The notes under the pieces are model-generated. The model was not told the DNA's origin and did no database searches. It was given only the letters and a program-made list of their open reading frames with translations. 64,000 nucleotides of DNA from Takakia lepidozioides (taxonomy: Eukaryota > Plantae > Bryophyta). Positions 6,751-30,619 of this stretch are shown here, piece by piece. The stretch spans positions 50,282,001 through 50,346,000 of the forward strand of contig CM060733.1 of assembly GCA_030704615.1 (NCBI GenBank). The letters run 5' to 3'. A program made the position numbers and the translations under genes. Position 1 is the first letter of the stretch. Each line of letters opens with the position of its first letter.

Positions 6751-9700
6751 CTAGCCATACATACCCACCACCACCGCTAGGTGGGGATCAAGGCCAGACC
6801 GCAGCTTGTTCTTAAAAAATGCCAAAAATGAAAAGCATCGTTCATCCTCAACGCTGCCCAAGACATGCACCATCGCGATCTCTGCAAGTTTGACATACTC
6901 CAGGAATGCATGAGTTAGTACGCGAGATGCATGAATAGTTCTCCAGATCTTTGTGAGAGGGTTAGGGGGGTTCCATGGCTGCCAAAGCATTGGATTTCAT
7001 ACTCAACTTGAACATACCAGTGTTGGGCGGTTACCCACCAGGACCCAGGTTAACCGCCGGTTTAGGTTCAGGTTAACCGGAACCGGGGCCCATTCCTGCA
7101 GAACCTGACCCGGAACCGGAACCTGCCAATGGGGATCGGCGCAGAACCGAACCGGTTCCTGTTGGGGTGAAAACCAGAGAACCGGGGCGCATGGGGATAA
7201 AAACAGGTTCCGGTTCTTGAACCCTTGGTGGGCCCTTGGCATAACATGGCATAACCTGGAGAGCTGGTGGGCCCCATGGCAAAACTAGCTCCATGAGATC
7301 TTGGGTTCAATGCTTGAAGGCCATGACATTCTATGTTCAATGCTTCAACGCCATGAGATCTTGGGTTCAATTTCCAGCTCCATGATATCATGGCTAAGTT
7401 CATTAATCAAAATGTTGGAAGATGCCAATACTTGCCAGATAGCTGAATAGTAATTTCAACCCATAAAATCTTACCCATTTTCTTCTACCAGTTTATTTAG
7501 AGTATTTTTGTTTGTTTTTTTTTGTGTTAGTGAAAACTAATAAAATCATTGGATTTTAGTTCAAATATGTGAATACATTGCTATTTAATCTCCCGGACTG
7601 ATAAAATATTTTAAATCTAATTATTTATTTAAATAAAAATAAATAAATAAAAACCAGAACCTAACCGGAACCGGTGGTTTTTATCAGCAACTAACTGGTA
7701 ACTGGAACCGCCCCCATGTTTAAAAGTTGGATCCGGAACCAGACCGGAACCGGCTCAATAAAAAAAAAAACCGGAACCGAATCCAGAACCGTCTCTTGAA
7801 AAGAAATGTGGAGCCGGAACTGAAGGTTCCTTCACAAATGCAAGAACCGCCCAAAACTGGAACATACCTTGCTGGGAGTCCAAGTCCCAACAATTGAGGG
7901 TGGGCTGAATTGTTTTCTGATCAGCCCCCTCGCCAAAAACTCTAGCCTCACCATACCAGCTCTTGAGCACCTCAAGGTGCTTCCTAAAACTATCCTCAGC
8001 CCCTGATTGCAACCAGCACTGTGGGTACACGATTCCCATGGCATCAAACACTGAGTGCTCAGGAAATCTGATATTCAGCTCATCCACAAGTTGCATGGCT
8101 GCAATTGCACACCCACATGCGCTTAAGTTAGAGCAAAAAAGCAAGCCTGAACAGTCACAGCAGAAATGGTAAGTACATTTCCAAGAGCATGGATAGTCAT
8201 AGCAGCAACAATGGTTCCAGATTTCAACTGGGGTAATCAGATTTCAAGGGGCATGGCAGTTAAATATTACCTGAACACTCATTTTTGGCTCTGGCCACGA
8301 GGTTGTTCCATAAGTCCTTGTTCACATAGTTCCGCGGACTCTCCACCTCAGTCCCATCCACACCCTGCCCTACTTGTGCCTCCACTATCACCAAGTCATC
8401 AGCACCAGCCACATGCACAATGGGCATAGATGCAGCAGACACATGGTTAGCCCACACTTGCTCCCCATTCACAATATAAACCAAATGTTATGAGTTGTTG
8501 TTCAGGTCAGCCACCCCCTTGAGGTGGATTGCTCATGGCCTACAATCCAACAAGCTCTTAAAAGACCAGAACTCATCACTTGCAAAGGCAGTTCCCCGAT
8601 CAATGTACAAGGAGTATAACTGCCCCTGACAGATTTTAATCGCAGCAACCATGTCACAAATGAAAACATTTCGGTCTTGTGCAAAGTGCACCAAACAATC
8701 GATGCTCTCAAGGAGGGGGAGAATGCAACACATACCCAACATGGTGTATGGGTCACATAACAAAGCCAGCAAACCCTGCCACACACCACAGCAACACACC
8801 ACATCAGAAATGCCGAATGAACTAGTTAATCATAAACATGCACAACATGATAAAATATGCACACAAGCCAACAAATTCTAATTACCTTTGCAGCTTTGTT
8901 GTCCGTCTTGTCGATCTGCATGTTGGCCAGGATGGGTCTGTACTCGGCCAAAATCCGCTTCATTGGTTCAATGATGGACACCCACCGCGTTTTCACATTC
9001 CGAAGCATTTTCAGACCCTTTGTTTCCATCATGTCTGCAAACTTGGTGAACTCCAAGTATCTTTTGGGGTTGTATGCAAAATAGGCATGGCTGGTCTGAA
9101 GCAAAGTCTCAATGCCACTAACAATGCTCAACTGGGATAGTGTCTTGAAGGCCAAATTGTACATATGTGCCATGCAATGCACCCTCATACAGAAGGGAGC
9201 ATGCTTGGATGCAATTTGTTTTGTGACACCATTCCTCATACCTTGGAAGGTGCTCACACCATCAGCCCCAAAACAAAGCAATTTCTGAGCTACAGAAGAT
9301 TCAGCGAGTCCTCCACCCTTTCACAATGCATCCATTATGACTAGAGTGAGGTTATCAGCCCCACTCCCGTCCACAATTTTTTGGAGAGAGAGATCATCAT
9401 GGGGATTCTTACCCAGTTCTGCACAAAGTATGCATGGACGCTGATCCACGAGCCATTGTCCACAGAGGTTACCTCATCACAAGTCAAGGCAACAAATTTG
9501 GCAGTTCTTACAGAAGTCAGCATAGCCTGTTGAACCTCATTATACATGAATTCTGCCATAATCCAGCCACTTGTAGCACTCCAATGCATTTTGGGGCTGT
9601 TCTGGACCTCCAAATACTCATACAAATCTTGCATTCTCTCATACTCTATCATGGGTCAGCCCCCTCAAAGCAAATGAAGAAGAGTAACAAATTGGACTTT

Positions 9701-10372
9701 CTTTCTAGCCCTCTCACCCGTGTTGTGGACAACAATTTGTTCCAGTACTGTGGCAGGAGCACGGGCATTATATAAAGCGGCATTCTTCTTGTGCTTGCAA
9801 TCACTTGCTACATACCATTCCCCCTTTTTTACCTTATACTTGGGCATGTCCCTCTGGGCCCTCCTCCTCCCCTCGTGCTTGATGAGTGTGTCCCACTTGG
9901 GGGCCATGAGCATGGGCCTCTTGTTGATGGTGGAGCAGACCTTGCACCTCACAAGATGTAAGCTCCCATCTGTGCCAAGCTCCCCCTCAGCCCATGGCAG
10001 CTTTGCTACCCACTCCAACTGGAATTTCCTTGTCAGATCATAGTTAGGCTTAGCTTTTTTGGCAGGCACAGCGTCCTCATGTGCATCATCTGAATCCTCA
10101 TTGTCATGTGTGTCAGCAGACACCACAATAGTCCCATGAGAAGTTTGGGATGACTCTGGGGGTGAGGGGATAGAGTCACTGGACTCATTTGATGTGCCTT
10201 CAGCATCAGAGGGTGGTGGCATTCTATCACAAACTACGCTAAGAGGCTGGGAATTTCCCCAATTCCGCGAGCTCGCTAAGTACTTGTCAAGAAAAGAGAA
10301 GGAACTCATGCGTTTGGATGCGGCAAGGGGCCTGGATTTGAGACTCATCCTTGTGTTGGGACTCCAAATCAA
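6751..10372 (-). pseudogene. hAT transposase, ZNF862-like (TTF-type Zn finger, DDE core, C-terminal dimerisation domain)
   Basis: LPWAEG...VRCKVCS...LIKHEG; ALTCDEVTSVDN; FGADGVSTFQG...HCMAH; TRWVS; LGSVEDERCFSFLAFFKNKLR. Broken by stops, frameshifts and a MITE. Confidence 0.88.
7018..7859. mobile_element. Non-autonomous hAT-type MITE (842 bp) nested in the transposase
   Basis: TIRs CAGTGTTGGGCGGTT / AACCGCCCAAAACTG. Perfect 8-bp TSD GAACATAC (7010-7017, 7860-7867). GAACCG-rich subterminal repeats. Removing it restores ...QQGMFKLSMK. Confidence 0.93.
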
Positions 10373-12759
10373 TCCAACCTTAACACTATAACATGCAAAG
10401 AGGACAAGATAGGAGAAAAAAAGATATAAACAAGACTAGTTCTCCCTGAACTAAAGAAGATAGAAAGCAAGGCATGGCGGGGACTCGACAATGGAGACTC
10501 CACATACAACTACAGTGCAAAGAATGTAAGAATGCAAGAACATATGAGGCAAGGGGTCGGGGGTCAAGGGTGTACCTCACTTTGTTACATGTCTCCCTCC
10601 TGCTTCAGCCTATGCCGCCACGATCCTAATGCGATCCAGCAGCCGCCTCCGCACAAAAAAGCTCCCCCCGCATCCTTCAAGTCCCTCCCAATAAAGAAGC
10701 GCACACTAAACAAACCTGGCGATGCACATGAACTCAAGGCACAACATAGTAGGCGATGAACTCAGAGTGACAGCTGCCGCGCCGTGGTGGCGATGGCCAC
10801 CCCCTCCAGCCCTAAAATGCTTGGCAAACGGACGGCCTAGGGCGGAGCACATGGCGAGATCCCCTACGGCTACCACGCCAACAGGCGCCGGCCTTGGATG
10901 GCGGGTCAGGATCCGGTTCCCAGGCGCCAAGGGGTGGTTCCATTGTTGCTTTATGGTGACACTCCGCCAGGGAACGCATGCTTTCTGGTTTTTTTTTTGT
11001 TTTTTCCCATGTTTTTTTCAAGGATGTGTCGTAGCCCACAAAGTTTGAGTGCTTTCTGGCTTTATTTCGCCTAAAAAATATGGGTTGCACCTACTTCGTT
11101 GGGTCTCCGGCCTCGCCCTAGTGACTCACTAGGAGCCATAATGCGCCCTAGGGGGCGCAAGATACATGCATGAAGGTGGGAGCTCCGATTCCATATCCTG
11201 TATGTATGACAATGATGGCCATTTCGGCGAGGAAATAACATCTCTTGACAGTTTTTCGTAAGGGTGGATCCAGCAATATTCTCGATGCGGACATGAACAT
11301 TCGCACTGACAAGTGCCAGGACTATTAGTTAAAACGGTTAGACAACCAAGTTGTGCTCATTAACACAGGCCGCAATTGTGTTGTTTCGGAACAATGCATC
11401 CCATTGCACATGACGGAACGCAAACGGAAATGCGGCACCGCATTTCCGTCCAACAAGCATGGAATGAAAGTGGAGAAATGATATCGAATAATACCGATGT
11501 CGCCTTATTGGAAACTCTCGTTGGCGGGCTTGGCATCCCAACAGACATGTTTTGACGAGACCTCGGTACGTCCGAGGTATTCATTTTCTTCCTCGAGTCT
11601 GCTTTGTCTCTAACGAAGGACTTCTCTCCGGTGGAACCGATTTGTAGAAGAGATTGAAATGGTTTGGGAGCCCTATTCCGCTTCCTCGGTGCAGAACATT
11701 GCACCAACACTGCAGGGTCGGGAAGCCGAGAAGTTGCAATTGAAGTTTCGTCCTTGTCCTCGTCCAAAGGGTTGCGGAGAAGGGGAACGGAATGGAAATT
11801 GTTCCTTGAGCACTCACATCCTGAATGGAATTCACACGTAATGAAGGATTACCTCGGAACAGATTTTCAATGAAGACGTCGTTTGACAGGAATGTCACAA
11901 TCCGCAGATTTTCTGGCCTGGAGTAAAACAAGAACATCAAACCCAATACTAGTCTAAGGAAAACAAAAGGACGAGTTAGAATTCAGATATAAGTAATTTT
12001 ACCTGACTCCTTCTGATTTGGGCTGTCCAACCTTCGTGCTGGGGAGAGAAGGAGGGAAGATAGACAACAGTGTGACGCGGAGCCGCATCCTCAGCCGCAT
12101 CCTTAATGGCTGACATTCTCAAGGTACATTTCAGACCCTTGACACTTAAAAGGGAGGGTGAGGAAGACCGTAGATTGAGGTCCACGAAATCCCCTACAGA
12201 TTTGTCAGGTTGGCTTCCACCTTCGACATTCAATGCTAAACAATCCTGCGACGGAACATCCTTCTCAGGAATGGACTGAAGAGGATGGTCGTGCAATTGA
12301 AATGAAGCCAAGTGCCTGGATGATTCTTCACTGTCGTTGACAGAAATCTCAACAGTAGTGTGAATGTTGTCCCTCTGTCGACGAATTTCTGATATGGAGG
12401 ATTCCAATGGAGGTCCCGACAAGAAGTTGGCATCAGCAGGATCTCCATGAACCTACAGAAATGAACTTACATGGTCAATGTACAGACACAGGATAACCTC
12501 CACTGCACAGTGGGAGTTGTCGGATATGAAAAAGCCCCCGAGACGAGTTTCGGGGAAGGCTTGAATCCCAGAGGATCGGGATGGTATAGGGTGGAGAAAT
12601 GCATGGATGAGACTAGGAGATAGCAAACAATTCCATGTCAATTCACATTGAAACGGAAATCACAGTAGACAACAGTTTTTATAGAAAAACAATACAACCT
12701 ATAGAAAAACCAATCAAAAATATACATTGAATCACAGACGTGGTTGATCAATAAAATCT

Positions 12760-13492
12760 TTATTTTGAAGCATCATATCGGAGATTCCCGTAATTAGAAT
12801 CATCAATATAATCCAAGAGAGGCTTAAACTTGGGATCGGTTGAAACATTCTGGTAAGGCTTAAGTCCTATCCTCTTTTCCCTGAGATAACTGGAAACGGT
12901 GCGAGATTTCTTCATTTCAAGCAAATATTTATGGAGAACCTTCTGGAGATAGCAAGAGTCCGTCTCAACGGATTCAAACGATTTTAGAATCAGACATGAT
13001 TCAGGCGGGTTCAACACACACTTAATAGCATAATTGTCAATGAGTAGAGTGTTACTCCTGTTGTACTGACCACCAAATCTTTGCCAGACCGTCATCAATG
13101 GCTTCAAGAACAGACTCGGTGGGTCATATCCTGATATAAATTGAGGGTGGACAGAAGTAGGACAGGAGATACAATCTTCTTGAGACATAACAAATGTCGG
13201 CTGAGGAAGACCCCAAAGCATAAAGTCTAGGATAGGCTGCAAGTTCTTGTACATCATGCAGCTCCATATATCTAGACGGAAATGTTTGTTCAACTCTGTC
13301 CACATCTCACGATATTTTTCCCGCCTATAGACAAGTCGAAATCCAACAAGAGCTGGTATCTTTTAGTCTGTCTCAGACATTCGGGGGACATTGTAGCTCT
13401 TCTGGTGCTTCAAGACTTTGCACAAAACTCCATTCAGGTAAAAAATTATCAAGCGCAATCCTTTCGCAACTGGAGAAACTGGTGCTGCAATC
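12760..13492 (-). pseudogene. FCP1/NIF-like HAD phosphatase-fold domain 2 (degenerate catalytic motif, disrupted)
   Basis: RLIIFYLNGVLC (motif-I position) ... FRLDIWSC ... VMSQEDC ... LFLKPL..VW ... SNTLLIDN...KCVLNP. Confidence 0.75.
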
Positions 13493-13607
13493 TGTGAGAA
13501 ATTCATACATGCACTTAGGTGGTAATCAAGATAAACCAAGGATAGGATTGACATTGGGAGCAACGTCCACTGGACAGTCGAGGTTCAGGAAAATCTCGAG
13601 CAGCCAT

Positions 13608-14402
13608 CTACGTTTCAATCTGTTCCAAGGAAGCGTCAGGAAATTTTTGTTTTCTAAGATAAACCTGCCACTGCAAATCCCATAGCAAGAGGCATTTGAC
13701 CTTTGGGTCATTATACGGTCGACATCCTATGGGTTTTTCCACGTTGAATATATCAGCGTCTTTTCCGGATAACCGCAACTCTTCTAGGTGCAGTTTGAGT
13801 TCATCCAGAAGAAACTTGTCCTTGTATGGGTCGACGAGCGCTTTATATTTTGGAAGGAAGATACCGATCGACTTTGGGTTCAAGTAGGACTTATACATAT
13901 TTTCTACAGTGTCGATAAGAAGTGTGTTTGATTTGTACGCTACAGTGTCGTCTACAGTGAAAAGGTCGTAGAGACGTTTGAGATATATTGGCGCTCTCGG
14001 ATATTTGGGCCATTTGTCACTGAAAGTCTGTCTGTGCTTCACGCAGTTCTCATTGCTGAATTCACTGACCTTGTAAAACCTTCTTCCAAACAAAGCCAGC
14101 CCTATATCCAGGACATTTTCTAACGGTCCAGTGTTCCAAAAGTAGACCTTAAAATGCTTAAGGACCCATTTCAGGTAGTCGTCCAACCCATTTCGGACTG
14201 CAAGCTTGAATTTTCCAGCGCACACACAAGGATGGGTTGCGGGAGGGGATCTCGGGCCATCTCGGAGGTAAACCTCACCAAGGTAACCGACGTCAAGAAC
14301 CAGGATGTAATATCCTGGTCGACATCCTTTCGGTTCCTCAGAGAGGCGATACCAATCCTGTGGGTTCACAGATTTGTGATAGTCGATTGGAGGGTGAATC
14401 AT
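13608..14402 (-). CDS. FCP1/NIF-like HAD phosphatase-fold domain 1 (degenerate catalytic motif), probably an exon
   Basis: YILVLDVGYL ... VRNGLDDYLKWVLKHFKVYFWNTG ... IYLKRLYDLF ... SNTLLIDT..KSYLNP. Splice acceptor TTCCACAG just upstream. Confidence 0.75.
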   Translation of the reverse strand: MIHPPIDYHKSVNPQDWYRLSEEPKGCRPGYYILVLDVGYLGEVYLRDGPRSPPATHPCVCAGKFKLAVRNGLDDYLKWVLKHFKVYFWNTGPLENVLDIGLALFGRRFYKVSEFSNENCVKHRQTFSDKWPKYPRAPIYLKRLYDLFTVDDTVAYKSNTLLIDTVENMYKSYLNPKSIGIFLPKYKALVDPYKDKFLLDELKLHLEELRLSGKDADIFNVEKPIGCRPYNDPKVKCLLLWDLQWQVYLRKQKFPDASLEQIET

Positions 14403-14917
14403 ATCATCCTGTGGAATAACAGAACAATTAATTTATTTTGAAAACTAGAAGAAGGAAAAAGAAGAACATAGCTAAGATGGTTATGAAGTGTATACCCGTT
14501 TCGGGGAGGGATTCCGAATTTGTTGTTGTGGCTGCTCGCTCTCTTTTCCTTCGTGCTGAGCAACGACCATCTCCGACTCATCTCCTCCATCTCGCAACGT
14601 CGACTGGGCAGTGGAGGTTGCTCGTATGACCGGATCAGGTGGGCTGACCCTTATTGTTAAGTCCACCTGTCTCCTCACTGTTTGAGTCGAGATGGACTCT
14701 GTCCGGGTTTGTGTGATTTCCTCCAATTTCTGTTCATGGATCTATACGAGTTTTCGTAACCGTCAGTCACATGTAAAGTTGAAGAAGGTTTGAAATATCA
14801 AGATACACATTAGATATTGGCAAAAACACAACCAAAACACAACCAGATGCAATACACACAATTTGTTCCATTTATAATACTTAAAGACACCATAAATCTT
14901 CAGGTGTCATTCATTAC

Positions 14918-17900
14918 CTACATCCAAATTACATGCTGGGAGACACTTTGAGAGTAAGTTGGGCTCTGAGTTCGGCCTCTGCCTCCGCTGTTTTTTCCAG
15001 GAGATGGGCTTTTAGTCCTGGCTCTGTCACCACTGTCCCGTTTTGCAGGAGACGGGCTCTTAGTCCTCGCTCTGTGTCCGCTTTCTTTTTTGAGACACGG
15101 GCTCTTTGTCCTCGCTCTCTCTACCCTCTCTTTGGCGGGAGACGGAGACATTGGCGCCGGCTCGTCCCCTTCTACAGGTTTGAACCAGTCTTCTGAACTC
15201 CGAACAAGATTGTCGGCCACCTCGATTGAGCTGGCCTCGGCACCCCTTGAGGGTGAAGGAGGATTACTCTTAGTTCTCTCGCTTGAACTCGACGAATCCC
15301 CATCAAGAATCACAACCTTGTGGACCGCAACATCTTGCGTGGTGTTCTCAAGTCCATCCAGTGACCGAGTTCTGAAGTCCTGAATCACATCTAGGTGTCC
15401 AGCCTCCCAACGGTCTGCATTGTCTCCATCGTGGCCCTCGGTGTCCTCATTACAATCGATGCCCTCGTCCTCCTCTCTGTGTTCGGAATGTCCACCTCCT
15501 TCTTCCAAGTCTTCATCTTCCTCCTCATCCTCATCATCGTCTCCTCCGTCAACCTCTTCAGCAACATTATCATTCTCAATTTGAAGCTTCTTAAAATTTG
15601 CTTCTACTTTTCCTTTGCAATTTTTTTTTTTGGTTGAGTGGTTGATGTCAAGCACTCGAATGTTTCTTGCCTGCAGATAAACCCAGTCAATAAAACAGAG
15701 GACGTGTTCGATCAAAAATATAAAAATCGTATTTAAAATGCCAAAAGGTTTTACACTTACATGAAGGGCGTACGTCAACATCACGCCTCCGAAGATGTTG
15801 ACAGCGGACATCCCATCTCGACAAAACAGGGAGGCCAAATAATCGTATGTGTCAACTCGTAGCTCATGATTATAAGTCCTGCACTCTTCTTCAAAAGCTG
15901 ATGGCTTCTCAGAAGGCCCTTCCAGAATCGGCTGTATTGGCTCGATTAAGAGTACGGTGACGATGTGCTCGTCCAGATTCTGCATCTTCTCGGGTGTCGC
16001 TGGAAAAACATAGTCCAGGCACATTACAGTCCAAGAGAAAGTCTTCGTGCTATTTTTATAAACATTTTCATACTCCCCCGGAACATAAAATCCATGTCGG
16101 ACAAGATACGATGTTCTTCCGGGACCATTTTGGATGTAGGAGACCAGATTGGCCGAGGATGGTTGCGTCGAGAAGAAAACAAAAGCACTCATGTTCATTT
16201 TCTGAGCCACAAAAGCCTCCAGTATGTTCACATAATCCTTGGACTCAAATACCACAGAGTCATCTTCAGAAATTATATTGACGAACACCATCACTATGTT
16301 GTCAAACTGTTTCTCGGTGCGAGTCGCAGACGGGACTTGACATCGGCGAATTTTGTTTCCCCCCCCATGAGAACGTAATGAGACTTGAAACTCGCTGAAA
16401 TAATCGCCATGGCATCTTCTCTATCCTCATAAGCTTTCTTGATGGAGGAGACATACTTAACAAAAGTGGCCGTCAGTGGTTTTGTCTCCATGTTTATCTT
16501 GATCTTGCTTTGGATGTAATCCGTCCCTAGTTTGTCTTTAAATGTTGAGAACTTTGCCTTATTGCAGTGGTACTTTTTCTTCACTTCACGCCACTTGTCC
16601 TTAGTGTACGGTTCCGTGCACTGTTTGTCCTCCAAGGCCACCCCAACACTTCCATAACATCGTCGACAATAAATCGGCGCATTTTCATGTCGTCTATGTA
16701 CTTGTTCATGCCTTAAATTGATTTGTCTTGTCCTTTGTAATCTTGAATGGTCAATTTCAGGTCCAGGATTTTCTGCGCAACTTTTATCAGCTGCCATCTG
16801 TTCAACCCTTGCAACTTTGCGATAGCAGATTTCGTGAGCTATTGCCGTTCACCCTTGTACTGTATCCCAAGCGGGTCGAGTAGCTTTCCCTGCTCCCAGT
16901 TTTTTTAAACATCTTCCCAGATCTTCCAAACGTCATTGTCGCAAAGTACCATGACCATTGCCTCCTTAATGCTACCCATTTCAAATATCAAATGACAGGC
17001 AAACATGAACTCCTGCACATTCAGGAAAAATTAGGTGTCATTCCGACAACAGAAGTATTCTTTAGCATAAAATGAATGTGAATAATAGTTTTTCATTCCA
17101 TAAATGCATACCTTCCATCGTTTCGTCTCGGACTTGGTGGTGTGATCGTTGTATTTCTTTGGCTTCCCCCTCAGGTTGAATAACATTCGCGCGTGCGCAA
17201 CTTTCTCCGGTATTGTTGTATCAAACTTTTGTGCCATATTGGGATCGTTGAGGAGCTTTGACAACTTTAGGAGCCTTTGTTCATCGGTAGACCATACAAT
17301 CTTCGCAGGCCACTCCCGGTAAGACTCCTTCAGTTCGCTGTCGGCAAGATCCTCGAGAAGTTCCTACTACAGTTAATATAAAATGGGTGAGAGAGTTGAA
17401 AGTGTAGGGACATATCCAATTTTGTTGTTCAACACCAACCTCCACTGCCCAGTGGAGGTTCGTTAAAAGAGAGGTCTGGGTGGAAGTGAAGTCCATTACC
17501 TTTGCTGCCACGATGGTGTGTTATCCACCAATGACGAAGAACCTGGATACGTCCATTTCCTTCCATTGCTTCGGTCGCGATGAAGCAATCTTCTCGAGAT
17601 TGGAAGGGTTGATTGGCGCAAGATACACCGGATGTTTGGAGTCGAACAAATGAAGCTGGAAGAGTCGCGGTTTCACTTCGTCCTTATGCTTGATATTTAA
17701 CGGCCTGTAAACCATGCTCCTTGGAGCTAGTTCCATCATGGAAACCTTAACAAGGAAGGTACTCTCGAATCCGAATGGAAATACGTCATTGTATTCCTTC
17801 GTGAGCCTCTCCTCCATCTTCTCGCATTTTTCCTTGTCGAAAATCTCCCCAGCTTTAGGTCTCTTGTTATCTGACATCAATGTTGGATCTTGATCCTCCT

Positions 17901-18636
17901 TCTGTTTCTTCTTTCCTGCGGAAGTCCCGGCCTCATTGTCATCATTGCCGGCTGTCGACGACTTGCGTTTTCCCTTCTTCGGCTTTGATGCTTCCTGTAG
18001 TGCTTGCTTCTTGCGAATGTCGTTCCCCATTGCGTGCAGAAGATCCAGAAAAATACTCCAGGCCCTCGATAAACCTACGTCAGTAAATACTGAGCCCTCG
18101 TCTAGAAATCTAAAACCTAGTGCAATGCATTCACTCATCAACGACTTGTTCAGACGACCCACCTCCACTTCGAAACCTAACATCCCGGGGGTTCTCGCAT
18201 CCTCATGCAGGAACAAAACCAACATTGGGTTTTCTTCTTCAGATTCAAGCTCTATATCGAGAGCTTCTGCGTATTTTAAGTCTGTTATTACTCCAAGACT
18301 TCTGTAATGAAAAGACAGTTTGTGATCAGGAGGTGTACCGACAGGCACGATGCCCCAATCTGTCACCTCTGCGTTATGCTCAAATATTGCGGTATGCTCA
18401 GTTTTGAAATTTGAGGACTTCCGGTATACGAATGTGCCACAAATATCTCCAATCAGTCCCGGGACACAATCTGGTGGTATAGGATGTCTTTTGTTACAAC
18501 CAAACACAAATTCATTAGATAATGAAATAACAAGATCTCTCTTACTAACATCCATCATTCCAGATATAAGAACCTCCACTGGACAGTGGAGGTTCGTATG
18601 TACGAGGCTTTCTACATGAAATGGGAAATCCTCCAT
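14918..18636 (-). pseudogene. Multi-exon gene: ParB/Srx-like domain, helical region, degenerate N6/N4 DNA-methyltransferase-like domain, acidic and RS-rich tail
   Basis: VYRPLN..H...V ... FFVIGG*HTIVAAK (TAA probably from CAA, giving GQH), spliced to ...WPAKIVWSTDEQRLLKLSKLLND...IPEKVAHAR. C-terminal ELRVDTYDYLASLFCRDGMSAVNIFGG..LTYAL/ARNIRVLDI resembles motifs X-I-II of beta-class amino-MTases. Several stops. Confidence 0.55.
14955..15140 (-). repeat. ~48-bp coding tandem repeat (RARTKSPSP, about 4 copies)
   Basis: ERARTKSPCLKKESGHRARTKSPSPAKRDSGDRARTKSPSPGKNSGGRGRTQSPT. Confidence 0.8.
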
Positions 18637-18764
18637 ATTTTACAGATGTAGTAGAAAGAAACTTTAATGAAAATGAGGCTGAGGAGCCATTGAATACATC
18701 ATCCTGAAACAAGACAAATCTACAATAGAAATCTTCAGAAGATTCTAGATTATATACCCAAGAA

Positions 18765-19324
18765 CTACAAAATGCTCCTTCTGATCTCTCTGAGTGTATC
18801 AGGCGAATAGTCTGGAGGGGTATATTTTGGGGATCCGGTGATACTATCAGGAGACGCAGGGGAGTATCCTGGAGATCCGGAGACGTCCAGGAGTTCCAGG
18901 ACTCCCTGTCTCGTTGCAGTGTCCAGGAAAAAGTTTGGAGGGTAATATCCTGCATATCCTGTTGTGGATTCATGAGATGCTGGAAGTAACCCGGAGATGT
19001 GGGATATCCAAAAACGGTCTCTCGTATCGCCGCCAATGTGTCCGGGGAATAGTCTGGAGGGGTGTATCTCGGATAATCTTGGGAGTAGGCAGGAGATCCG
19101 TTGACATCATTGTTTACATGAACGCTTTCTCTTATTTCCGCCAGGGTATCCTTGGAGATGTCTTGAGGTGTATTGTTGGGAGATTCAGATGCGTTTCGCG
19201 GGGATTCTACAGTCACATTTTTGTCAATCCCAGACACTTCGTTCGGCTCGGTAGACCCCCAACTGGATTTTTCATCTGGTTTCGAAACACCATGTTTTTG
19301 ATCTGGATGGTCCGCTTCCATCAC
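18765..19324 (-). pseudogene. Ser/Pro/Tyr-rich repetitive ORF, frameshifted, unknown function
   Basis: Repeats GSPAYSQDYPRYTPPDYSPDTLAAIRE and, in another frame, GSPGYSPASP..GSPKYTPPDYSPDTLREIRR. Confidence 0.45.
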
Positions 19325-19852
19325 GTCTACCGAACACCGTCTCTTGCTCCAATTTAAGCTGACGGTCTTGTACTCATCACCGGTTCCCCACCCTCGCTCC
19401 TCTTTCTCATACTGACATAAAAACTAATCAGAGTGTGTAACTGGCTGACCCAAAGAAATATCAAACTTCCACTAGGTAGTGGAGGTTCCCAATTATCGTA
19501 TTCCAGTCTCGTTGGAAAGTATGTGTCACACTTACAATGTTACACATATGATTCCATCACTTGTTCCCACACTGTCTCACACTGATTTTCATTTTTCCCG
19601 GAATTATCCGATTTCGTCCTAACTTTAAAAAATGTCTTTCAGCTTCCCCTTACAGAATTCACGCAAACCTCCACTGGGCAGTGGAGGTTCCAGTTTTTGG
19701 TTCCTCATGTGCATGACATTGGTCTACGAATAGTCTACTTTGGCCTGCACAAAGCCTAATGTTAGCCTATGTCTAGTGTAGAATACAAGTAGACTAGGCT
19801 ATCGTGGTTTTTTAGAATTGCCAAATTCGACAAAATTGGATAAGAAATGAAA

Positions 19853-20578
19853 TGTCGCGGCCCTTTGCCTTGAGGGCAGGGGGTCGGGACACGAGAGGGG
19901 CTGCCCCTGTGGTGGGGGCAGTGGCAACAATAGATGCGGGGGCTGAAGCACCCCTGAGTGCCCAAGGCACTCAAGGAGGCGGAGGCGCTCACTAGGTGGA
20001 GCCTCGCACACCGGGTTGCGGTGAGGGTGGTTCCACGAGAGGTGGTGGTAGCTTAGTGGGACTTAGTGGGGGTGGCATAGGACTCACCATGGGGGCGGAG
20101 ACCTTGTGGTGGGAGTCGTGGGGAGTCTTGGGACTCATCATGGTCCAATGAGACCGTGGTGGATGGGCCAAGACTCACCGCGACTCATCACCGGGAATCG
20201 AGGGTTTTCGTGGTGGTTCGCCATAAAATGGCATGGTTATTTGTGAAACCCCCGCAGACAGTCACAGAAGTATATATAGGGAGTAGTAACCCCGAGAACG
20301 GTGCAAGCCCGTTGGTGACCAAAAACTAGTGAGTGAGCGAGCGAGCCGGAAAGCGACCAAGGAGTGGGGAGCTATTCCGGACTGCCATCTACCAAAGGGA
20401 ATTTTCACTAGGCCCAAATTGGTGGAGGGTCTGTTGGAGGAGCAAAGGGGGACCGTTATGCCTTGGTGAGCAGCCGAACCTCCGAGTTGGCCCGGCGGCC
20501 AGTTGGGGAGTTAGGCGCGCGCATCAAAGCGAGTAACTATGACTTGAAGGGGAGCTTACCGAAGTGAGGTGCGCGACA
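19853..20578 (+). mobile_element. Solo LTR (726 bp)
   Basis: TGTCGCG...CGCGACA termini. 5-bp TSD TGAAA (19848-19852, 20579-20583). Internal TATATATA at ~20271. Confidence 0.88.
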
Positions 20579-21132
20579 TGAAATTTTCCATTCATAATTG
20601 AATTTGAATGGGAACAAATGCATCAACTATTGACAAGAACAAACTAATGCTGGATTTAAGGATCAAGATAACGGTTGAGAAATAAACATCTGGACATTTC
20701 CGAAACCACTGTCCTAAAAAAACCACCACATTGAACAAACACAAGCAATACAACCAGCACGGTAATCTCCTGCCACCCTAAACCATTACCCTAATCAACC
20801 AGAACAAGCACACACAAACCCTATTGTACACAAAACCACCCTACAAACCATCGATGAATTGAACTACAACAGTGAAGCAATGAAGCATTGCACAGAATGG
20901 AGCAGGAGTGAAATGAATTGACAGAGAATGAAGCAGGAATGAAGCATAAATGAAGCAAACAACAAAGCAGACAATGAAACAGAAACCTAATGTGCACCGA
21001 AGCACGGACTGAAGCACTGAAGTAGAGATGAGAGTTTACTGAAGACAGTGCAGTGCAACATAGAATGAAGCAGGATCCAAACGAATTGAATTGAGAACAG
21101 GCCAACACAAAACATGAAACATAAGACGAAAA

Positions 21133-21810
21133 GCACCGGGTTGAATCTAGGCACATGTGTTGTAGTCGTGGCAGGAGGAGTAGTAGCACCTTTTGAACTG
21201 GTACCACCTGCAGAAGTACTGGCACTACTTGTTTCACTACTAGTGCTGGCCGTGGGAGATATTGGTGCTGATGCCGCTACTGGTCGCGTTGTGCCTCGAG
21301 TAATGGGGACGTAGTCAGATGACCAATATATCCTCCACTCCTCAATCTCTGCTTCATGTCCTCGCCTGAACTCGTGGTAATCGTCCATAGGCGGGCCTTC
21401 CAAATGCTGGAACAATCCCTTCCACGCCATGAATGGGGTGAACAGCTGTGGATTGCGCATCTGCTGCAAATCACACCAGCTGTCGAACTCCTGGATAAAG
21501 TCATCCAGCTCGATTGTGCCCACAGCTCCAGAGTACCTACGAGGCCCCTTGGTAGCTCCATACATCTCCTCCATGTCGTCCCACAATAATGGCGAATAAA
21601 ACTGCACACATGTTGATGAAGCCTCTGGGTCTGTGTCATACTCTACAATAGTCGAGGGTGGAGGTGAAGGTGAACCGAATACCTCGTCTTGTGAACCCAC
21701 TCTCACTGCTACTGCCTGTAGCCGTACTCCCCTCAAAACCCTTGGGTAACTCCGTGATGACACTCACAACGTGCACCTCCCCTACGTGACACTATAAGGC
21801 TCTAGTACTA
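21133..21810 (-). mobile_element. Gypsy 5' internal fragment: degenerate Met-PBS and gag N-terminus, inverted relative to the gag-pol at 26994
   Basis: TAGTACTAGAGCC (21810-21798) resembles TGGTATCAGAGCC. Gag-like GPRRYSG...LDDFIQEFDSWCDLQ...FQHLEG ending at VPRFNPV. Confidence 0.7.
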
Positions 21811-23889
21811 ATTCTAATAGTGACACGGGTGGGCACCTGTTGCAATTTAAGGGTCATATCCCAGTGGCTCGGGGCACCTGCACCTGCATCCACCGCAAGA
21901 ACTCCTATGGTTGGCTGGTCATCAACCCAGTCTCACCATAGAAGAAACATTGGTGGTCTTGCTGGTCATCACTCCAGCCTCACCACCGACAGCATACTCT
22001 AGGATTGACCGGTGATCAAATCCGGCCTAATCCCTATGAAAGCAAACGCCCACACAAAACCAACATGGCGCACAGTCAAGCATGCAGGCGTTGGGGGGGA
22101 TCCAAACACAAGAAATCAAAACATCAACACCCCCACACCAAAATCCATCTGTAGTGCTGATCCTGCAGAACATCCCAGCCCAAAACCCTGGACTGACTGG
22201 CCTCCACCAAGAGAGGCTTTGGCAACTACAAGTACAAAGTAATGAAAATAGTAAAAAGAGGGAGGGGAAGAATAGAGGCCCGACCAAGCAAGATCTAATC
22301 CTGATCTATGCTATCAACTGCCAGACTTCTCTCAAAGTGCCTCGCTTTGCATGATGGTAAGGTGTAGGAGGTATATCTATGTCCAGAAACCTATTACTAA
22401 CCTTATCCCAAGCTACAGTAGCTCGCTCTAACCAACCCTCCTCCTCTCTCTGCCAGGTAGAGACAAAGCAATACTCCCCTATCTCCCGCTCACTGAACAC
22501 TAAAGAAAATAAAGGTAGGGTCTGACAGTCTCTCAACTCGAAAGCTTTGAGATGGTTGCGGGTGTCCTCATTGCGAATGATTGCATCTCCTTCAAGCAGA
22601 ACGAACTTTTCATTGCTAATGAACCCCCGCTCGTGGTTGCCTCGTGTAGAACGTGTCCGGCTGCAACCATGTCTGATTGCAAAAATTTGTGTAGCTCCTG
22701 CTCCTCTGCTCCAGTACACCACGGCCTTGTGGCTGAACACCTTGGTCCCCGGGGCTGTCTTTGGCTGTATTCCAAGCCTAGCTTCCACCCACTTTGGTAT
22801 TTCAAATTGCTGCAGAACTGCTTGCTCCAACAGAGTTCTTACTGTCCAAAGCAATATTGAGGCCCTCAACGCCAACTACAACTATTTGTTGTCTATTACT
22901 AATGCCTGACTCCCAGTATGCAATCAACTCGTCCAACTGCTCTCCACTCAAATTAGTCTGAGTACCTTGAGAAACATAAATCTAGTCCCCTTGTGTGCAC
23001 AGGCTAAGAGAAGAGATCTGCCCTTCAATTACGTCCTTATTTCCCCCAACCATATAAGGAGAACATCCCCAGATTTGTCTCTCATGTAGACCACAACAGG
23101 TTCTAGAAATAGAATTGTGGATCTTTCATAGCGTTGGCTGCATGGGAGGGATCATTACGAATTTTAATCCAAGGTGGGCCATGGACTTGAGCAGCCAGCT
23201 TGTGAGATGCAGAGCAGTTCACCAGTGTATGTTTGAAACACCTGTAGGTGAAATCCAGGGAATCTGTGAGAACTACATGGACGTGTTGGGAACTCGTAGA
23301 TGACTTGGGAGCAGTTTTTAATGGCGAGACGTTTTGGTGTTAAAAAAAAAAACCCCTTTTGATCTAATTTAAATGGTTTAGAGCCTAATTGGTCATATCT
23401 TTGTCAAATGGACTCCGTTTGACTCAGTTTTTGGGGGGATAGCTGTAGAAAGGGGAAATCTACCTATCTAGTAGTTTTGGATTTAGGTTTTAGTTTTTTG
23501 GACTCTGCTAAAAATCTATGGAATTTTTTGAGTGTATCCCGAAGAGGAAGATGCCGACGTCAGCGATATGCATCTGTCTGACAAGCAGTTCTTTGCAACA
23601 GAATAGGCATACCAAACCCGCTCGACATAGAATATGGCAATGGACAGGGTGGGCCACGACCCAAACACTCCTGCCGCACAATCTCCATCGGCGTCCAATC
23701 TGCACGTTCACCGGATGACCCTCCGCAATACCACGACCACACCACCTGCTGTCTGTTCGTCTGCACCCCAACTCCCCAATAATGACAACGTCCACTGGGC
23801 AGTGGAGGTTCTACAAAGTGGAAGAACAAGAAAGCATGATGGCATCAACAAGAATAAAATCAGCCAGAGTATTTTGAAAAAGGAAAAGG

Positions 23890-25150
23890 GGACGTTGGAC
23901 TCCTCTCGAATTCTCTTCCAGTTCATTTTGGGTGGCAAAATTATCAAAGTATCCCGACGTCCCTCTCCAATGCAAAGTGTTTTGTGAGGCATAAGGTCAG
24001 TATTGGCATTGATAATGGACATAATGTTCCCCGCCGCGATTTCCGTGGAAAGATGACAAACAACCCTCTTTACTGAGCTTTTTGTACTCCATGTACGTTG
24101 ACCTTCCAATTCCGTGTATTATCCACCATGCTTTCTCACAAACATCAACACCTTCTATCATAACATACGACTTGCACGATGATCCATCCATTATGTGAAG
24201 TCATTTTGAAACATTCAATCCAAGTTCTCTCCTCTCATCGAATGACGAACCCCAAAATGAAGTACGAATTGCCAAGGTTTTTCTCCAATCAAAATACTGG
24301 CAGCCATTGAAGCTTGCAGCAAGGTTTGTTGCTCACCGACCTCCCTTCATCCAAAGTAAGATTTTTCTTGCACTTTTTTTAGTCCTCCATATTGGATGGT
24401 TTCTTCTTCCAAGTAAAATGCCTGTATGCTGATTTCTTTACGCCCGTACCATGGTCATTATTCTCTATGTCACTGCATGATCGTAGGAAATTTTCGAGAT
24501 CAACGGAGAGTATCTGGCCATTTTCAAGAAGTCTTGTTTTTGTTAACGGCCATTTTACAATGGACATCAGTGAACCGGATTCTCCTGAGATTGTTCTGGT
24601 GACCAGAACCCCAACATCGTCCTCTCCGAATTTGTCATTCAGAATGATCTCGTTAGGAATGCACGCCTGAATTCGGCCTTCGAATAGGGCGTTTCCGTCA
24701 TCCCCAAGAAGAAGACACTGCAAGTTTCTCCAACAATCTCTCCCCAGACCTACAGCCAGATCCCCTTCAATCTCACCGTTGGACGGAATTTCATTGCTTT
24801 CAGTGCTTTGTCCTTGATAATCACTATCTTCTGTGATAGAATGACATCCTGGGTCTCTCTAGGATGCTGAATCCACAGTTTCATGAGTGCGAACACATGA
24901 CACGTCCCACACAACTGGAGTCCCAATCGCCTCCTTCAATGTGTCAGCATCCATGTGTCGATAAGGCAGAGGACATGAGCCGAATGCGTCATCACAAAAG
25001 ATCAGGGTAACTAAAATCGTAGACGAACACAAGTGGTGTCCGTGGCAAGTTCCTTCCCCATAAACATTCAGGCAATCTCTTGAGGCAACCATTGAAGGAG
25101 ATCCAGGAAGCGACAGAAACACCCTTTGGCCTACTTGGAACCCCATGAAG
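23890..25150 (-). pseudogene. DNA-transposon protein fragment: two Tnp1/En-Spm-like modules plus the Cys-rich N-terminal part of a DUF7869/Sola-like transposase
   Basis: VGQRVFL...VAS...GTCHGHHL...PLPY...TLKEAIGTPVVWD; LFEGRI...VGVLV...VKWP; CCQYFDW..IRTSFW...IEGVDVCEKAWWIIHGIGRSTY...HGNRG...DLMPH. Truncated before any DDE core. Confidence 0.55.
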
Positions 25151-26993
25151 TTAGTAACCTCCATTGGGCAATGGAGGTTCAGTAAAATCCTATTACATGA
25201 TGGAAGATTAACTGAAGGAAAGAACGTCGTGCCACCGAAAGGAGAAACTTTAAGTATAACTTTTTCGACGGTTTTGAATGAGAAAAACAATATGGTTTGA
25301 AAAAGTAAAGTCAATGATTGGATCTACACTGGGACTGATGAAAAACAATTGGAATTAAAGTGGAGTATGAGGGCGGAGTATAGACTACATCTATCTGAAC
25401 TGTCAGATGAAGTCACAAATGCAACCTCCACTGGACAGTGGAGGTTGGATGATATCAGTTGATGAAATCAACCACATGGATGAATAATGGATAATGAAGA
25501 AGCCCTTTGTAGATGAAAAATTGATTCTATGGATGGATGAATAATAATGTGGCAACTGCCCAGTGGAGGTTTGGGAGTAACTTTAGACAAACAAAAGCAA
25601 GTTTAGTTGGTGCACATGGAGAGTACACAAAAAAATGAGTATCATACCATCCTACGTGAGAAATTTGCAGTTGACACCTAAGACTAAGGAAGCAGGGAGA
25701 GACTCAGAGGCTGCTTCAAAAGTACCCTATGGGCAGAGTGGTGCAGGACAGGCAAAGAGGTACACGTTGTCCAGAGAGGTGCAGGATGTCCAGAGAGGTG
25801 CATGAGAGAAAAGAAGCAAGTGAGAGGTTCACAGTGGGAAGTTGGTGTTGTGTGGAGTCGGACGTTATATAGAGGTGACAAGTAACTTTATCTTTGAATC
25901 GCTCCAATGGCAGTGTGGTATGCTTTCTCTCCCGGATCGATTGTGGCCACCGTGGATTAAGGCGGAATCGAACGGCTTATTTCAACTCGCGAAATCACGG
26001 CTTCATTGAAAGTGTGCACAATTTTCCATTTATTGACAGCAGCCATTGTCACATTAATTATGGAACAAATGATAACGGCCGTGATCATACTGAATTCTAT
26101 CGTACTTGTACGTTAGTAGGACTACATGTTTGGCATCATTATCGTGCGGCTCTGACAGCAGACTCTGGAATAAGCGTGAAGGATGTCGATTCTGACAAGT
26201 GGCCTGGAGAAATGAAGTCGGGCGGCTAATCGCCACAACTAATTCTGGACTGCACATTAACAATCGATCATTATAATTAGCTGGGAGGAATCCGGAGGTG
26301 AACCATAAAGCACTTTGAGATTGTTCTGTTTATATTTATCGTGCTGTTATAGTGAATAAAACACTTGGGCAGGGCGGGGCATCACATACCGGTGCATTGC
26401 ATTGGACAACGAGGGCGGTGCATTACAGGTGTGCGGAATGCTCTGTCGTGCCTTGCTTGCTTGCACATGTTTAATGTAGGGATGGACCCCTCGTGTCGGG
26501 TATCCCTCGATAAAATGGGCAGTCCCTATGGTGGCTCTGGATCTTGAATCGAGGAATGCCCGACACGAGGGGCCATCTACTATCCTTAAAACCGTATGTC
26601 ACATGGCACTTGCGGGTGTTGTCAGGGAATATTGACGCCTGGCGGCTAACAGCCGAAAGTGATTGTGGACGGCTCATAATGAGACAATGATTATAGAATG
26701 TGACGAATCCGTAGGTACAACGTTGTGTCCTTTGGCAGATTGAGTTCGAAACGACTGCTTAGGCATATCACGTGGGTGGTCACATGGGCGTTTGGGGCGT
26801 GGGTTAAGCTTTGGCGGCTTCGAATCTATTTTAAGATTTTTGTAAGCGTGAGGGTTGCAGAGTCTGACCAATGGCATCATTACAGTCATTTCGTCCTTTT
26901 TTCATTCGTTTGTCCGGTCGTCTGTCCCAACGTGTGTGCATTCGTCATTCAATTTGGAACAAAAGTTGAACTAATTTCATCTGTGTGGATGGA

Positions 26994-28920
26994 CAGCAGT
27001 TCTTCCAGGAGTTGCGGACGAACTACCAAGGCGTATGGACAGAGAAGCTGCGAAGTTTGCAAGACTTCCAGCGCAAATCCAGTGAGAGCTTGCGAGAGGC
27101 CTACACTCGTATGAGGCGCTTGATAAGTGTGACCCAAGGGGTTACTGAAGCTCAGGCAGTCCAGTTCTGGTATGAAATTTTGGTCAAGGAGCTCAAGAGA
27201 AGGGTGCGGGATGCAACCCTGTTACAAGTGGCCCAACCCACATTAGCAGATGTGTTTCTGCTGGCTGAGCCGACTGAGCTCAACATGGTGGAGGATCGAG
27301 TTGTTACCATTGGATTTGGCAAGGACATGCCTGCATGAGGTGCAGCTGCCAGCCAACAGGTACAAGGGACTGCCCAACAGCGTGGTCAGGGGGGCAAGGT
27401 GGCCCAACCCAAATTCCATGGAGCTTACAGGGGACCTCAGGTGCAGAGGCCAGTAGCATCTTTTGCAACCCAACAGCAACCAGGGGTGATATGTTGGACA
27501 CGTGGAAGACCTCATGTCAAGAAAGATTGCCCAGAGAGTGTCAAAAGGCCGGCACAAGCACAGCCTTCACAGTTGCAGTGTGGGCATTGTGGCAAGTATG
27601 GGCATGGAGATGCCCAGTGTTATGACTTGCACCCTGAGTTGCGGCAAGGCCAGTTCCAAGGGAACTATGGTACCCGAGGGCGAGGTGGAGCACCTTTGGA
27701 GTTGGTACCACCTGAGCTATGGCCATGGCAGCAAGCCTTTGCTCTAGCTGCTGAAGCCGGTTGGCCATACCTTGGTCAATGCCCTGACCTCCACGTCCTT
27801 GGCCATACTGTGCTTGCCCTCGTCCCACACCTCGTGCCTGACCACCTCGGGGTCCACCTCCTGTTCCTCCTCAGCAGCGTCATCCTGACGAAGGAGACAT
27901 GGGAGACATGGGATTTATGTGTGGGGCAACACTACCACTAGTGCAGGTGGAGTCTGCTGCAGCCGTCACTCGAGGAGCAGCACGAGTTCCTGAGCCACGA
28001 GGTGCAGAGGTGGAGTTGGATTCAGAACATGGGGAGGCAAGCCGTCAGGCTAGGTTGCCTCAATCATTCATCTTGGCGGAGACAGTGTCGATGACATCCA
28101 TGGCACCTAATTCTCGACCCACGGATACCGAGGCGGAGGTTATTGTGCCATTGGGAAGATCTACACGTGCAGCACTGACACCTGCTAACAAGGCTAGTGC
28201 AGCCAGTGTGTTGTTGGGGGCGGCCACCTCTGTGTGTCAGGCCCCACTGTTCTTGGCAACCATGATTGCAACGCCGGGGGTAAGACCAGCTGCAGTGTTC
28301 AGACTAGCAGCAATACTCTGTGAGAGTGGGGAGGTCACTTCATCTTCTGCGGAGTTAGTGGAAGGTGTAGTGGCAAAGGGATCCTTGGATTTGAGGGTCA
28401 AGACTGCCACGGCTACGCCATGACAAGCTGCAGCTGCCAGGTTGACGAAGCTGCCAGCTAGGCTAGCCTTTGAGCGCACCATGGTGACACCTAGAGTTGT
28501 CTTGTTAGACAACTAGGATGACATTTCTCTTTGAGTGGACCAGCAGGCAAGAGGTACCGGCCACTGCGGGTCTTGTTGGACTCGGGAGCTCAGCCACTAA
28601 TGTTGGGCAAAGCCACTATTGCAGGTTTGGGCCTCATGGAGGCGGATATGGAACCTTGTTCTTTCCAGATACAGACATCTCTGGGAGGATCAGAGCAGGC
28701 TCGGGGCATGACACGGCGTGAGTTGGCCATTAGACTACAGCCGGATCATCCTATAGATGGCTCAGTGATGCGAGCCAAGGTCATTATGACAGACGCGGTC
28801 TCTTTCGATGTCCTCGTTGGTGGGGAAGTGTTGTATCCCATGGGCTTCACCCTGGATTTTTGGGAGGAGTCAGCATCCTACAGGCCTGGATGGCAGTCAG
28901 GGGATGGTCGTCGTGTATAG
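26994..28920 (+). pseudogene. gag (Zn knuckles) plus aspartic protease
   Basis: FQRKSSESLREAYTRM; CGHCGKYGHGDAQC; RVLLDSGAQPLMLG...FDVLVG. Confidence 0.85.
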
Positions 28921-29289
28921 CTCTCTATGACGTTCATTGGGGGTGTTGTTGCTACCCAACGAGGCAAGATGCCAACACTAGCAGCCTTTACAGCTGCAGT
29001 TAGTTGGCCTGGAGAGTTGCTGGAGGGCAATGCCCATGCAGAGGATGTGCCACCTCCAGCAGAGCAGGATGACATGCATGGTACGGCAGAGTTGCCTGCC
29101 ATGGTTGCTCACACTTCATTGTGGGGTACGAGCAAGGATTTGCAGCAGGCTGCTGATAGACGGGTGCAACAATCCTGGGTAGAGGCCTTTGTACCATCAG
29201 GAGAGGAGGAGAGTGCGGTGATTGCACCAGGACCACCTCAATTGTCGCCATTGGACACCACACCTCTTGTGTGGCAGTGCCCGGATGAA

Positions 29290-30230: not shown

Positions 30231-30619
30231 TGGTTGAGCAGCGCAGAGTATGCAGTATACTTCCCTTGATAGTCTCTCTGCCTACCGAGATGGTACAGGC
30301 AGCGAGTGGGGGCGAACAGGTGAGGACCACAAGGTGAAGGCCGCATCCATAGCACATGTGGGAGGTGCTCGAGGTTCTGAAGGAGTTGGCAGCCAAGGCG
30401 GCGGTGATGGATGAGGTTGGGGAGTTTCTCGGGTTGAGGAAGTCCTTAAGGATGGGATGATGGGGCAGGATGAGACATTGTCACTGACAGAGCAGGTAGT
30501 GGTCACTGCTCAAGAGGTTGCAGCATAGCAACCACGGGACGCGTCTTCCACCTCTAAGCCTGCTGGACTCAAGGTTGCAGTCACAGAGGACAACTGGGAG
30601 CCTGATGTTGGACCCATAG

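Follow-up and report, generated by a model that had tools for sequence, protein, structure and literature searches.

A recurrent 24-bp palindrome at the genes of a putative Sola1-type transposon in Takakia lepidozioides

The window analysed here is a 64,000-nucleotide stretch of the genome of the bryophyte Takakia lepidozioides (assembly GCA_030704615.1, contig CM060733.1, positions 50,282,001 to 50,346,000), and it contains a repeated element that appears to be a Sola1-type DNA transposon. All genes of the element lie on the minus strand (Table 1): part of a transposase gene, a low-complexity frame, a predicted gene that resembles ParB and a methylase by eye, two FCP1/NIF-like open reading frames (ORFs) and a last frame of 158 codons. 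Scattered among them is a 24-bp palindrome, which we tentatively read as a binding site for a protein of the element itself.

The element and its palindromes

A mismatch search of the window found ten copies of the palindrome with at most three mismatches, all between 12495 and 25446; the same search returned no match in any of 100 dinucleotide shuffles. An eleventh copy, at 25548-25571, is a half-site with a perfect right arm and six mismatches overall. Raising the tolerance to seven mismatches over the 64 kb adds this half-site and three strays with seven mismatches each, and nothing more, and the nested long terminal repeat (LTR) pieces have no copy at six mismatches or fewer. The tally of full copies is thus ten within the element against none in the remaining 48.8 kb of the window. 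The preliminary description of this DNA, made from its letters alone, had reported a scattered palindrome with a constant spacer that is absent from the LTR pieces and the rest of the window, and these statements are borne out, as is the confinement of the sites to one repeated element within the window.

The spacer is 2 nt in all ten copies and its letters are non-random (GG in five, GA in three, CC and CA in one each). Across the 20 arms, positions 1-3, 6, 8 and 10 are invariant, seven of the eleven positions are invariant or vary once, and position 4 is the most variable. In other copies of the element a G precedes and a C follows the sites at 19464 and 19666, so that the family word there is 26 bp long. 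The DNA flanking the palindromes is unique, and a tandem-repeat origin of the window sites was rejected for that reason.

The sites are spread gene by gene. Three lie upstream of the transposase and one in its intron, two precede the low-complexity frame, one precedes the ParB-like gene and one is in its intron, one stands before each FCP1-like gene, and one stands before the 158-codon frame; conserved coding exons of the window element are avoided. The sites at 17437 and 23787, described earlier as intronic, both fall in predicted introns, the second of which matches an exon end common to homologues. Four of the eleven sites are 6-13 nt before an ATG, a count that is by itself within chance; in two of the genes, the transposase and the second FCP1-like one, the ATG after the site agrees with the start of the homologous domain.

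The extent of the element was judged from contigs of public runs aligned to the window (X1, X2 and X4 are from one sample, X5 from a second study). No contig of X6 aligned, and a run presumed to be RNA covered little. In X1 the summed contig depth is flat at about 4,000-8,600 over 11522-19375 and 23864-26668, compared with about 55-125 for a single listed contig, and it is far above 4,000-8,600 over 19.4-23.9 kb. This depth profile indicates that the DNA holding the palindromes forms a single repeated unit, into which high-copy pieces of retroelements are nested. The many distinct contigs and the flat, high depth across the element mark an interspersed multi-copy family, for which tens of copies is a rough estimate, depth not being copy number. 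Where tested, the sites are common to other copies of the family, which have consensus bases at positions at which the window copy deviates. No terminal inverted repeats (TIRs) were found between 10.9-11.9 kb and either 25.6-27.15 or 34.6-36.3 kb; the flanks are other repeats, and neither the true ends nor a target-site duplication, whose recognition needs both ends, were found.

Table 1. Features of the palindrome-bearing element, in window coordinates
Feature	Position	Strand	Remarks
Repeated element, minimum extent	11584..26676	-	Flat depth; contigs aligned full-length to both limits
158-codon frame	11979..12452	-	No family match
Palindrome	12495..12518		2 mismatches; upstream of ORF 12452-11979; X1, X4 and X5 contigs have consensus at 12514-12515
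FCP1/NIF-like ORF 2	12763..13554	-	One in-frame stop near 13364
Palindrome	13562..13585		8 nt before likely start codon of second FCP1-like gene
FCP1/NIF-like ORF 1 (HAD phosphatase fold)	13611..14432	-	Pfam NIF E=6.4e-5, above cut-off
Palindrome	14596..14619		Between ParB-like gene and first FCP1-like gene
ParB/methylase-like gene	14921..18558	-	Predicted; four exons, ~1,100 codons; several stops and frameshifts
Palindrome	17437..17460		Perfect; predicted intron 1 of ParB-like gene
Low-complexity frame, 292 codons	18548..19423	-	No family match
Palindrome	18571..18594		Perfect; 13 nt before likely ParB-like start codon; overlaps 3′ end of stop-to-stop frame 19423-18548
Palindrome	19464..19487		T at 19477 apparently family-wide; 19463, 19467 and 19474 are copy-level transitions
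Palindrome	19666..19689		Perfect; upstream of ORF 19423-18548
Nested retroelement pieces	19760..23540		High-copy; replace transposase 3′ part; nest boundaries approximate
Solo LTR within nest	19853-20578		5-bp TGAAA duplication
DUF7869/Sola1-type transposase gene, 5′ part	23540..25146	-	Stops and frameshifts; two tandem beta-barrel repeats, then cysteine-rich region
Palindrome	23787..23810		In transposase intron; intron position common to homologues
Palindrome	25156..25179		Private symmetric C>T / G>A pair; 10 nt before likely transposase start codon
Palindrome	25423..25446		Perfect; upstream of transposase
Half-site	25548..25571		Right arm perfect; left arm 6 mismatches
Imperfect 97-bp inverted repeat	26481..26577		In 5′ non-coding arm

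The element is a decayed copy of a repeated DNA transposon of roughly 15 kb, and its transposase is of the DUF7869/Sola1 kind. A 117-residue query from the window transposase led to 26 relatives; a profile of 16 sequences retrieves the Physcomitrium patens DUF7869 protein A0A2K1KXP1 (E=1.9e-66), with which the window fragments share 41-44% identity over residues 295-442. Equating the DUF7869 clade with Sola1 rests on one supplement row of PMC12477816 and one table of PMC9033089. The catalytic core (DDD/E) is absent from the window copy, nested pieces standing in its place, and it scores above the Pfam cut-off in the relatives L001, L008, L009 and P0050. Two other affiliations did not fit: CACTA/En-Spm with a TnpA, the transposase being of DUF7869 type and no CACTA ends being tied to the element; and VANDAL/VANC, neither a Mutator-like transposase nor a VANC protein having been found. 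A reading of the palindromes as head-to-tail junctions of Tc1-type ends with a 2-bp spacer was rejected, the spacer never being TA here and the relatives' arms lacking such ends.

Among the accessory genes, the ParB-like one shows by eye a ParB/Srx-like region, then methylase-like motifs and an acidic, SP-rich tail. FCP1-like domains have an established family role in the control of RNA polymerase II. The second of the two FCP1/NIF-like ORFs matches Pfam NIF over 12763-13362 above cut-off (E=7.9e-7) and HAD-IIID with E=4.2e-5.

Two sites, at 25156 and 19464, carry the symmetric substitutions in both arms that had been described earlier; as a sign of co-evolving arms these are not supported. 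At 25164 and 25171 all aligned depth of X1, X4 and X5 has the consensus base, so the pair is private to the window copy; each of its two changes falls on the C of a CWG. In X1, 23 variant rows cover 19430-19760: positions 19463, 19467 and 19474 have the consensus in 92-99% of the depth, and no row falls at 19477. The change at 19477 is therefore apparently family-wide, and the pair at 19464 combines one inherited and one later change, the copy-level one being of C-to-T type. Compensatory evolution of the arms across the family was accordingly rejected. Over the element, the window copy has A/T where X1 contigs have G/C at 371 places, compared with 168 in the reverse direction, an excess that is the signature of cytosine deamination. 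Deamination, offered earlier as another possible source of the symmetric changes, fits them better; they would be products of decay, in which methylated CWG sites changed from C to T, perhaps with copying across a hairpin. There is no CWG depletion across the whole element (observed/expected 1.07-1.14), so heavy long-term CHG decay is unsupported.

Related transposase loci and their words

Relatives of the element were collected as 39 loci from a transposase profile scan of metagenome contigs; the same profile gave no confirmed relative in viral contigs, and the exact window motif has no match in the metagenome contigs. At least three copies of a palindrome were found in 10 of the 39 loci, and more than one copy in none of 41 shuffled sequences. 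The words of the relatives are mostly of the form arm-NN-arm, one per lineage. The word GGTTTGGGTCG-NN occurs in L006, L007 and L020 (eight, five and three copies), CATCGGGAG-NN in L003 (three copies), ATTTGGCCA-NN in L009 (five copies) and CATTTGGTG-NN in 17 of the 28 loci of one clade, with one to five copies each; a GTCGGC word with a 5-nt centre has six copies in L001 and one in its sister L002. Left out of the count of lineages were a candidate motif of L029, present once or twice, and three further palindromes confined to a single locus each. When each word was scanned against the other loci, the result was near-diagonal for six lineages, with four stray single matches and shuffle means of 0-0.6 per 332 kb, in keeping with the earlier suggestion that related families might carry different palindromes.

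A tree of 24 rows (22 of the 39 loci plus the window copy and the P. patens protein) supports the large clade at 100/99, and the seven word labels need six changes on it, the fewest possible. Because kin share labels, the tree shows family specificity and not co-evolution with a given protein.

The position of the sites is also partly shared. In a strict scan, 8 of 28 sequences carry a site of their family in one and the same transposase intron, which follows a shared exon; with looser scans L001 and several further sequences join them. In the large clade the end of the element lies about 1.1 kb past the transposase stop, just beyond clustered sites that are ~113 bp apart, and no long frame occurs in the upstream DNA that its copies share. 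The 3′ terminus of one related family is followed by AT-rich, variable flanks.

Several further features of the relatives were observed. Fragments of ribosomal protein L5 lie in the shared upstream region of related elements (L028:4023-4355 and L035:80-298), overlapping the region of a palindrome site, and are possibly captured host sequence. The sister loci L008 (4028) and L009 (5169) have an identical 18-bp palindrome just past the stop codon and long uninterrupted transposase frames. The moss Sola1-type transposases (L001:244-1422 and homologues) have two or three N-terminal tandem barrels of Tudor/KOW-like appearance and another barrel-like region at the end; the predicted fold of the L001 N-terminus gives three confident beta-barrels, with middling scores to Tudor/KOW domains (Foldseek best E=0.004; VIA Z up to 6.7), and a fold search with the transposase N-terminus had no match at E<=0.001 or Z>=8. 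It is possible that such barrels are chromatin readers on a DNA transposase.

Candidate readers of the palindrome

A fixed, two-fold symmetric word of 20-26 bp, kept within a lineage and lying mostly outside conserved exons, is what one would expect of a dimeric reader encoded by the element. Our preferred reading, held tentatively, is that the palindromes are operator-like, putative sites for an element-encoded protein of two-fold symmetry, most likely the predicted ParB/methylase-like accessory protein. That protein is ranked first because the same pairing recurs in print on unrelated transposases, those of Sola1-1 in Ectocarpus and Plavaka in Bostrychia.

Ectocarpus Sola1-1_Ec32 is a 21.5-kb element with an accessory gene of 1104 amino acids, ParB-like and then N4/N6 methylase-like, whose product is proposed to bind and modify its own element; its transposase has P. 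patens Sola1 as best match (PMC12477816). It thus resembles the window element as a large Sola1 with a ParB-then-methylase-like gene of ~1,100 residues, the labels here being given by eye, but its accessory gene is on the opposite strand, and the parts of PMC12477816 at hand mention neither internal palindromes nor FCP1-like genes. The likeness of the two accessory proteins is one of description only, and the methylase motifs of the window protein look degenerate. P. patens Sola1 is close to the window element in its transposase (41-44% identical), its size near 15 kb and its moss-like host, but has TIRs and a 4-bp AWWT duplication, whereas the TIR searches in the window were empty (PMC10741241, PMC3845634 and PMC9033089, as far as excerpts of these go). 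In Bostrychia, Plavaka (EnSpm) has arrays of inverted repeats beside a ParB-like gene (PAG3) that InterPro missed (10.1101/2025.02.11.637652, in part). Both are large or giant transposons with a ParB-like accessory gene and inverted repeats proposed as binding sites, experimentally untested there too; Plavaka differs from the window element in its transposase superfamily, in the fusion of ParB to a 2-oxoglutarate oxygenase, and in having tandem arrays beside one gene where the window has single copies before each gene.

A dimer would read the two arms, and binding along the entire element would mark the element as self and control its genes, either by holding them open to transcription in the face of host methylation, in the manner of VANC and TnpA, or by tuning their activity, in the manner of plasmid KorB at its scattered operators; word and protein would change together between lineages. 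The purpose is likely self-regulation, whether anti-silencing as for VANC or control of the operator type. The motifs bound by VANC21 lie in the introns and between the genes of the element that encodes it (PMC5735166, in part), and transposases and TnpA bind and activate their own elements in AtMu1 and Spm (10.64898/2026.08.24.746577, in part). As described in these excerpts, VANDAL/VANC, Spm TnpA and AtMu1 all have element-encoded proteins acting on family-specific non-coding motifs of their own element, with motif and protein diverging between families; unlike the window palindromes, the motifs are 9-10 bp long, non-palindromic, and tandem-multiplied or clustered at ends, and the proteins are unrelated.

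Bacterial ParB on parS and KorB of plasmid RK2 bind a palindrome as a dimer, with a dozen sites across the mobile element, some of them beside genes. The window differs from these systems in having no ParA, no visible CTP-binding arginines or helix-turn-helix, and an intron-containing eukaryotic gene on an integrated transposon.

A number of observations weigh against the ParB-like protein as reader. Its ParB and methylase labels were given by eye, and library, fold and model searches were all blank: a ParB/Srx domain had no match in Pfam, PHROGs, NCBIfam, PDB, an atlas, plasmids or a protein collection, the query being decayed and split by an intron, and atlas matches of the gene to arthropod receptor clusters were taken as noise. 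The methylase motifs (DPPY-type and the S-adenosylmethionine-binding FxGxG) are degenerate by eye, with no library match and a single-sequence model of pLDDT (predicted local distance difference test) 34.5. The consensus of the ParB motif that binds cytidine triphosphate (CTP) is GxxRxxA; the single decayed copy here reads IGG-stop-HTIVAA, and the arginines are not visible. Among the element frames scanned there is no ORF for a ParA/Walker ATPase partner. Since neither the arginine motif nor ParA was seen, classical CTP-clamp partitioning is unlikely.

The relatives add to these points. No ParB-like or FCP1-like homologue was found in the 39 related loci, most of which are short and the large-clade copies decayed; the large clade, also as decayed copies, is covered from several kilobases upstream to the 3′ terminus and is still without a ParB-like gene. 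A stretch of L033 that looked like the ParB/FCP1-like genes did not align and was set aside. L001 has two sites inside coding sequence. Spacer letters are biased not only in the window (GG/GA) but in two relatives (GC and TA), as if entire sites had been copied and not each selected by itself. Finally, the conservation test leans towards the sites but is weak: between the sites at 19464 and 19666, 12 positions segregate among X1 copies over 19430-19760, compared with none inside the sites, one position being borderline (Fisher P=0.07), and the motif also attracts contigs that come from other sites.

The earlier suggestion of sites for a dimeric protein keeps both of its candidate binders; its parS-like version is left with a ParB label that library and fold searches did not confirm and with CTP-clamp arginines that were not seen. 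The suggestion of internal sites of the TnpA kind survives as an analogy, the element being Sola1-like and not CACTA.

It is somewhat unlikely, in our estimate, that the transposase itself binds the palindromes, as subterminal or internal sites for a cut-and-paste complex and possibly for self-activation, with the ParB-like gene as separate cargo. The word follows the transposase tree, although such tracking is built into a set of loci that were all found through the transposase, and relatives have sites without a detectable ParB-like gene. The largest related family has five sites at ~113-bp spacing that end ~90 bp from its shared terminus, and another family has arrays of five to eight sites upstream of the transposase, whereas the window sites are spread gene by gene rather than clustered at the ends. 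Precedent exists in the AtMu1 transposase and Spm TnpA, which recognise motifs specific to their family and lower the methylation of the elements that encode them (10.64898/2026.08.24.746577, in part), but in red algae the inverted repeats accompany the ParB-like gene on an unrelated transposase (10.1101/2025.02.11.637652, in part). The N-terminal repeat of one relative has a weak Pfam match to Transposase_23 (TNP1/En/Spm; E=0.043, below cut-off); the N-terminal barrels as modelled appear Tudor/KOW-like, with middling matches, and present no recognisable sequence-specific DNA-binding module. Were the transposase the binder, the result would be a more ordinary one, namely internal transposase sites in a poorly studied superfamily.

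We consider it improbable that the palindromes have no sequence-specific reader and act as hairpins or cruciforms, whether at the DNA level or within RNAs (5′ leaders and introns), or are by-products of template switching and conversion. All four sites tested form stable hairpins (-6 to -12 kcal/mol as DNA), several copies have spacers in common, and four sites lie shortly before an ATG; a hairpin requires symmetry and not a fixed sequence, yet seven of the eleven arm positions are near-invariant and each lineage has one word. Complementary double changes exceed the arm-shuffled expectation mildly in the window (2 versus 0.36, P=0.04) and clearly in one related family (3 versus 0.26, P=0.0007), and copying across the hairpin may contribute to the symmetric pairs. 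The excess is small and non-independent, however, in the related family it is confined to the outermost base, and four other motif sets show none (P 0.07-1.0); half-site and asymmetric sites, moreover, persist family-wide (19477). Least probable of all is a host transcription factor or the product of another gene of the element as reader, be it that of the low-complexity ORF or an FCP1-like protein acting with a partner, for although the sites lie immediately before genes and FCP1-like domains point to RNA polymerase II control, words of 24-26 bp that are lineage-specific and differ between related elements are far longer than host factor sites, and neither the low-complexity ORF nor the FCP1-like ORFs show a DNA-binding domain.

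If the ParB-like protein is the reader, a broader proposal can be made, which is possible but more doubtful: that land-plant Sola1 elements have a bacterial-style operator system, in which a ParB-derived dimer acts on a long palindrome before every gene and in introns, FCP1-like cargo helps in control or protection, and a new word arises in each lineage, giving orthogonal protein-DNA pairs of 20-26 bp. Parts of this are already in print: a moss Sola1, a Sola1 whose accessory gene combines ParB and methylase, and giant transposons on which ParB genes occur together with inverted repeats. Bao et al. (2009) may mention repeated internal palindromes in P. patens Sola1, in which case the palindrome phenomenon itself would already be known. 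Gene-by-gene palindromes, FCP1-like cargo and lineage-specific turnover of words in plant Sola1 were not found in the literature covered, which left Bao et al. (2009), Repbase and Iyer et al. (2011) outside its scope. Sequence-specific binding and regulation of a transposon by its own products is known from only a few cases, and the design of ParB plus palindrome has been proposed for algae and never tested. In mosses the genetics of the host is tractable, and since every lineage has a palindrome of its own, whether word and protein co-evolve can be tested directly; orthogonal DNA binders with long sites could result.

Surrounding sequence

The window is plant DNA with leucine-rich repeat (LRR) and pentatricopeptide repeat (PPR) fragments, a hAT-like element and Ty3 elements, all labelled by eye. 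A cluster of decayed LRR receptor-like repeats lies on the minus strand at 200-3430, and PPR fragments lie at 37700-38010 and 53750-55320. The left side of the palindrome-bearing element adjoins the hAT-like element at 7000-11000, which has GGTTCC/GGAACC subterminal repeats and a broken transposase. At 27000-34630 is a decayed Ty3 element in which, by eye, the protease is followed by a cytosine methyltransferase domain ahead of the reverse transcriptase, and the integrase by a PHD finger; no LTR pair was found for it. A full-length Ty3 element at 39828-52980 has LTRs that are 97-98% identical and contains tandem repeats of 10/30 bp in its interior.

A second palindrome family, GGAAATGCGG-NN-CCGCATTTCC, has 11 matches outside the element described above, in the intervals 56606-58368 and 11424-11449. 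Most of its copies are grouped ahead of a CACTA-type end near 58427, where they probably represent the subterminal repeats of a different element; one high-copy remnant of the family abuts the left side of the palindrome-bearing element. Within that second element, at 55950-57480, are long diverged inverted repeats (56015-56082/57168-57235 and 56293-56375/56878-56960), which suggest two head-to-head copies of a decayed gene.

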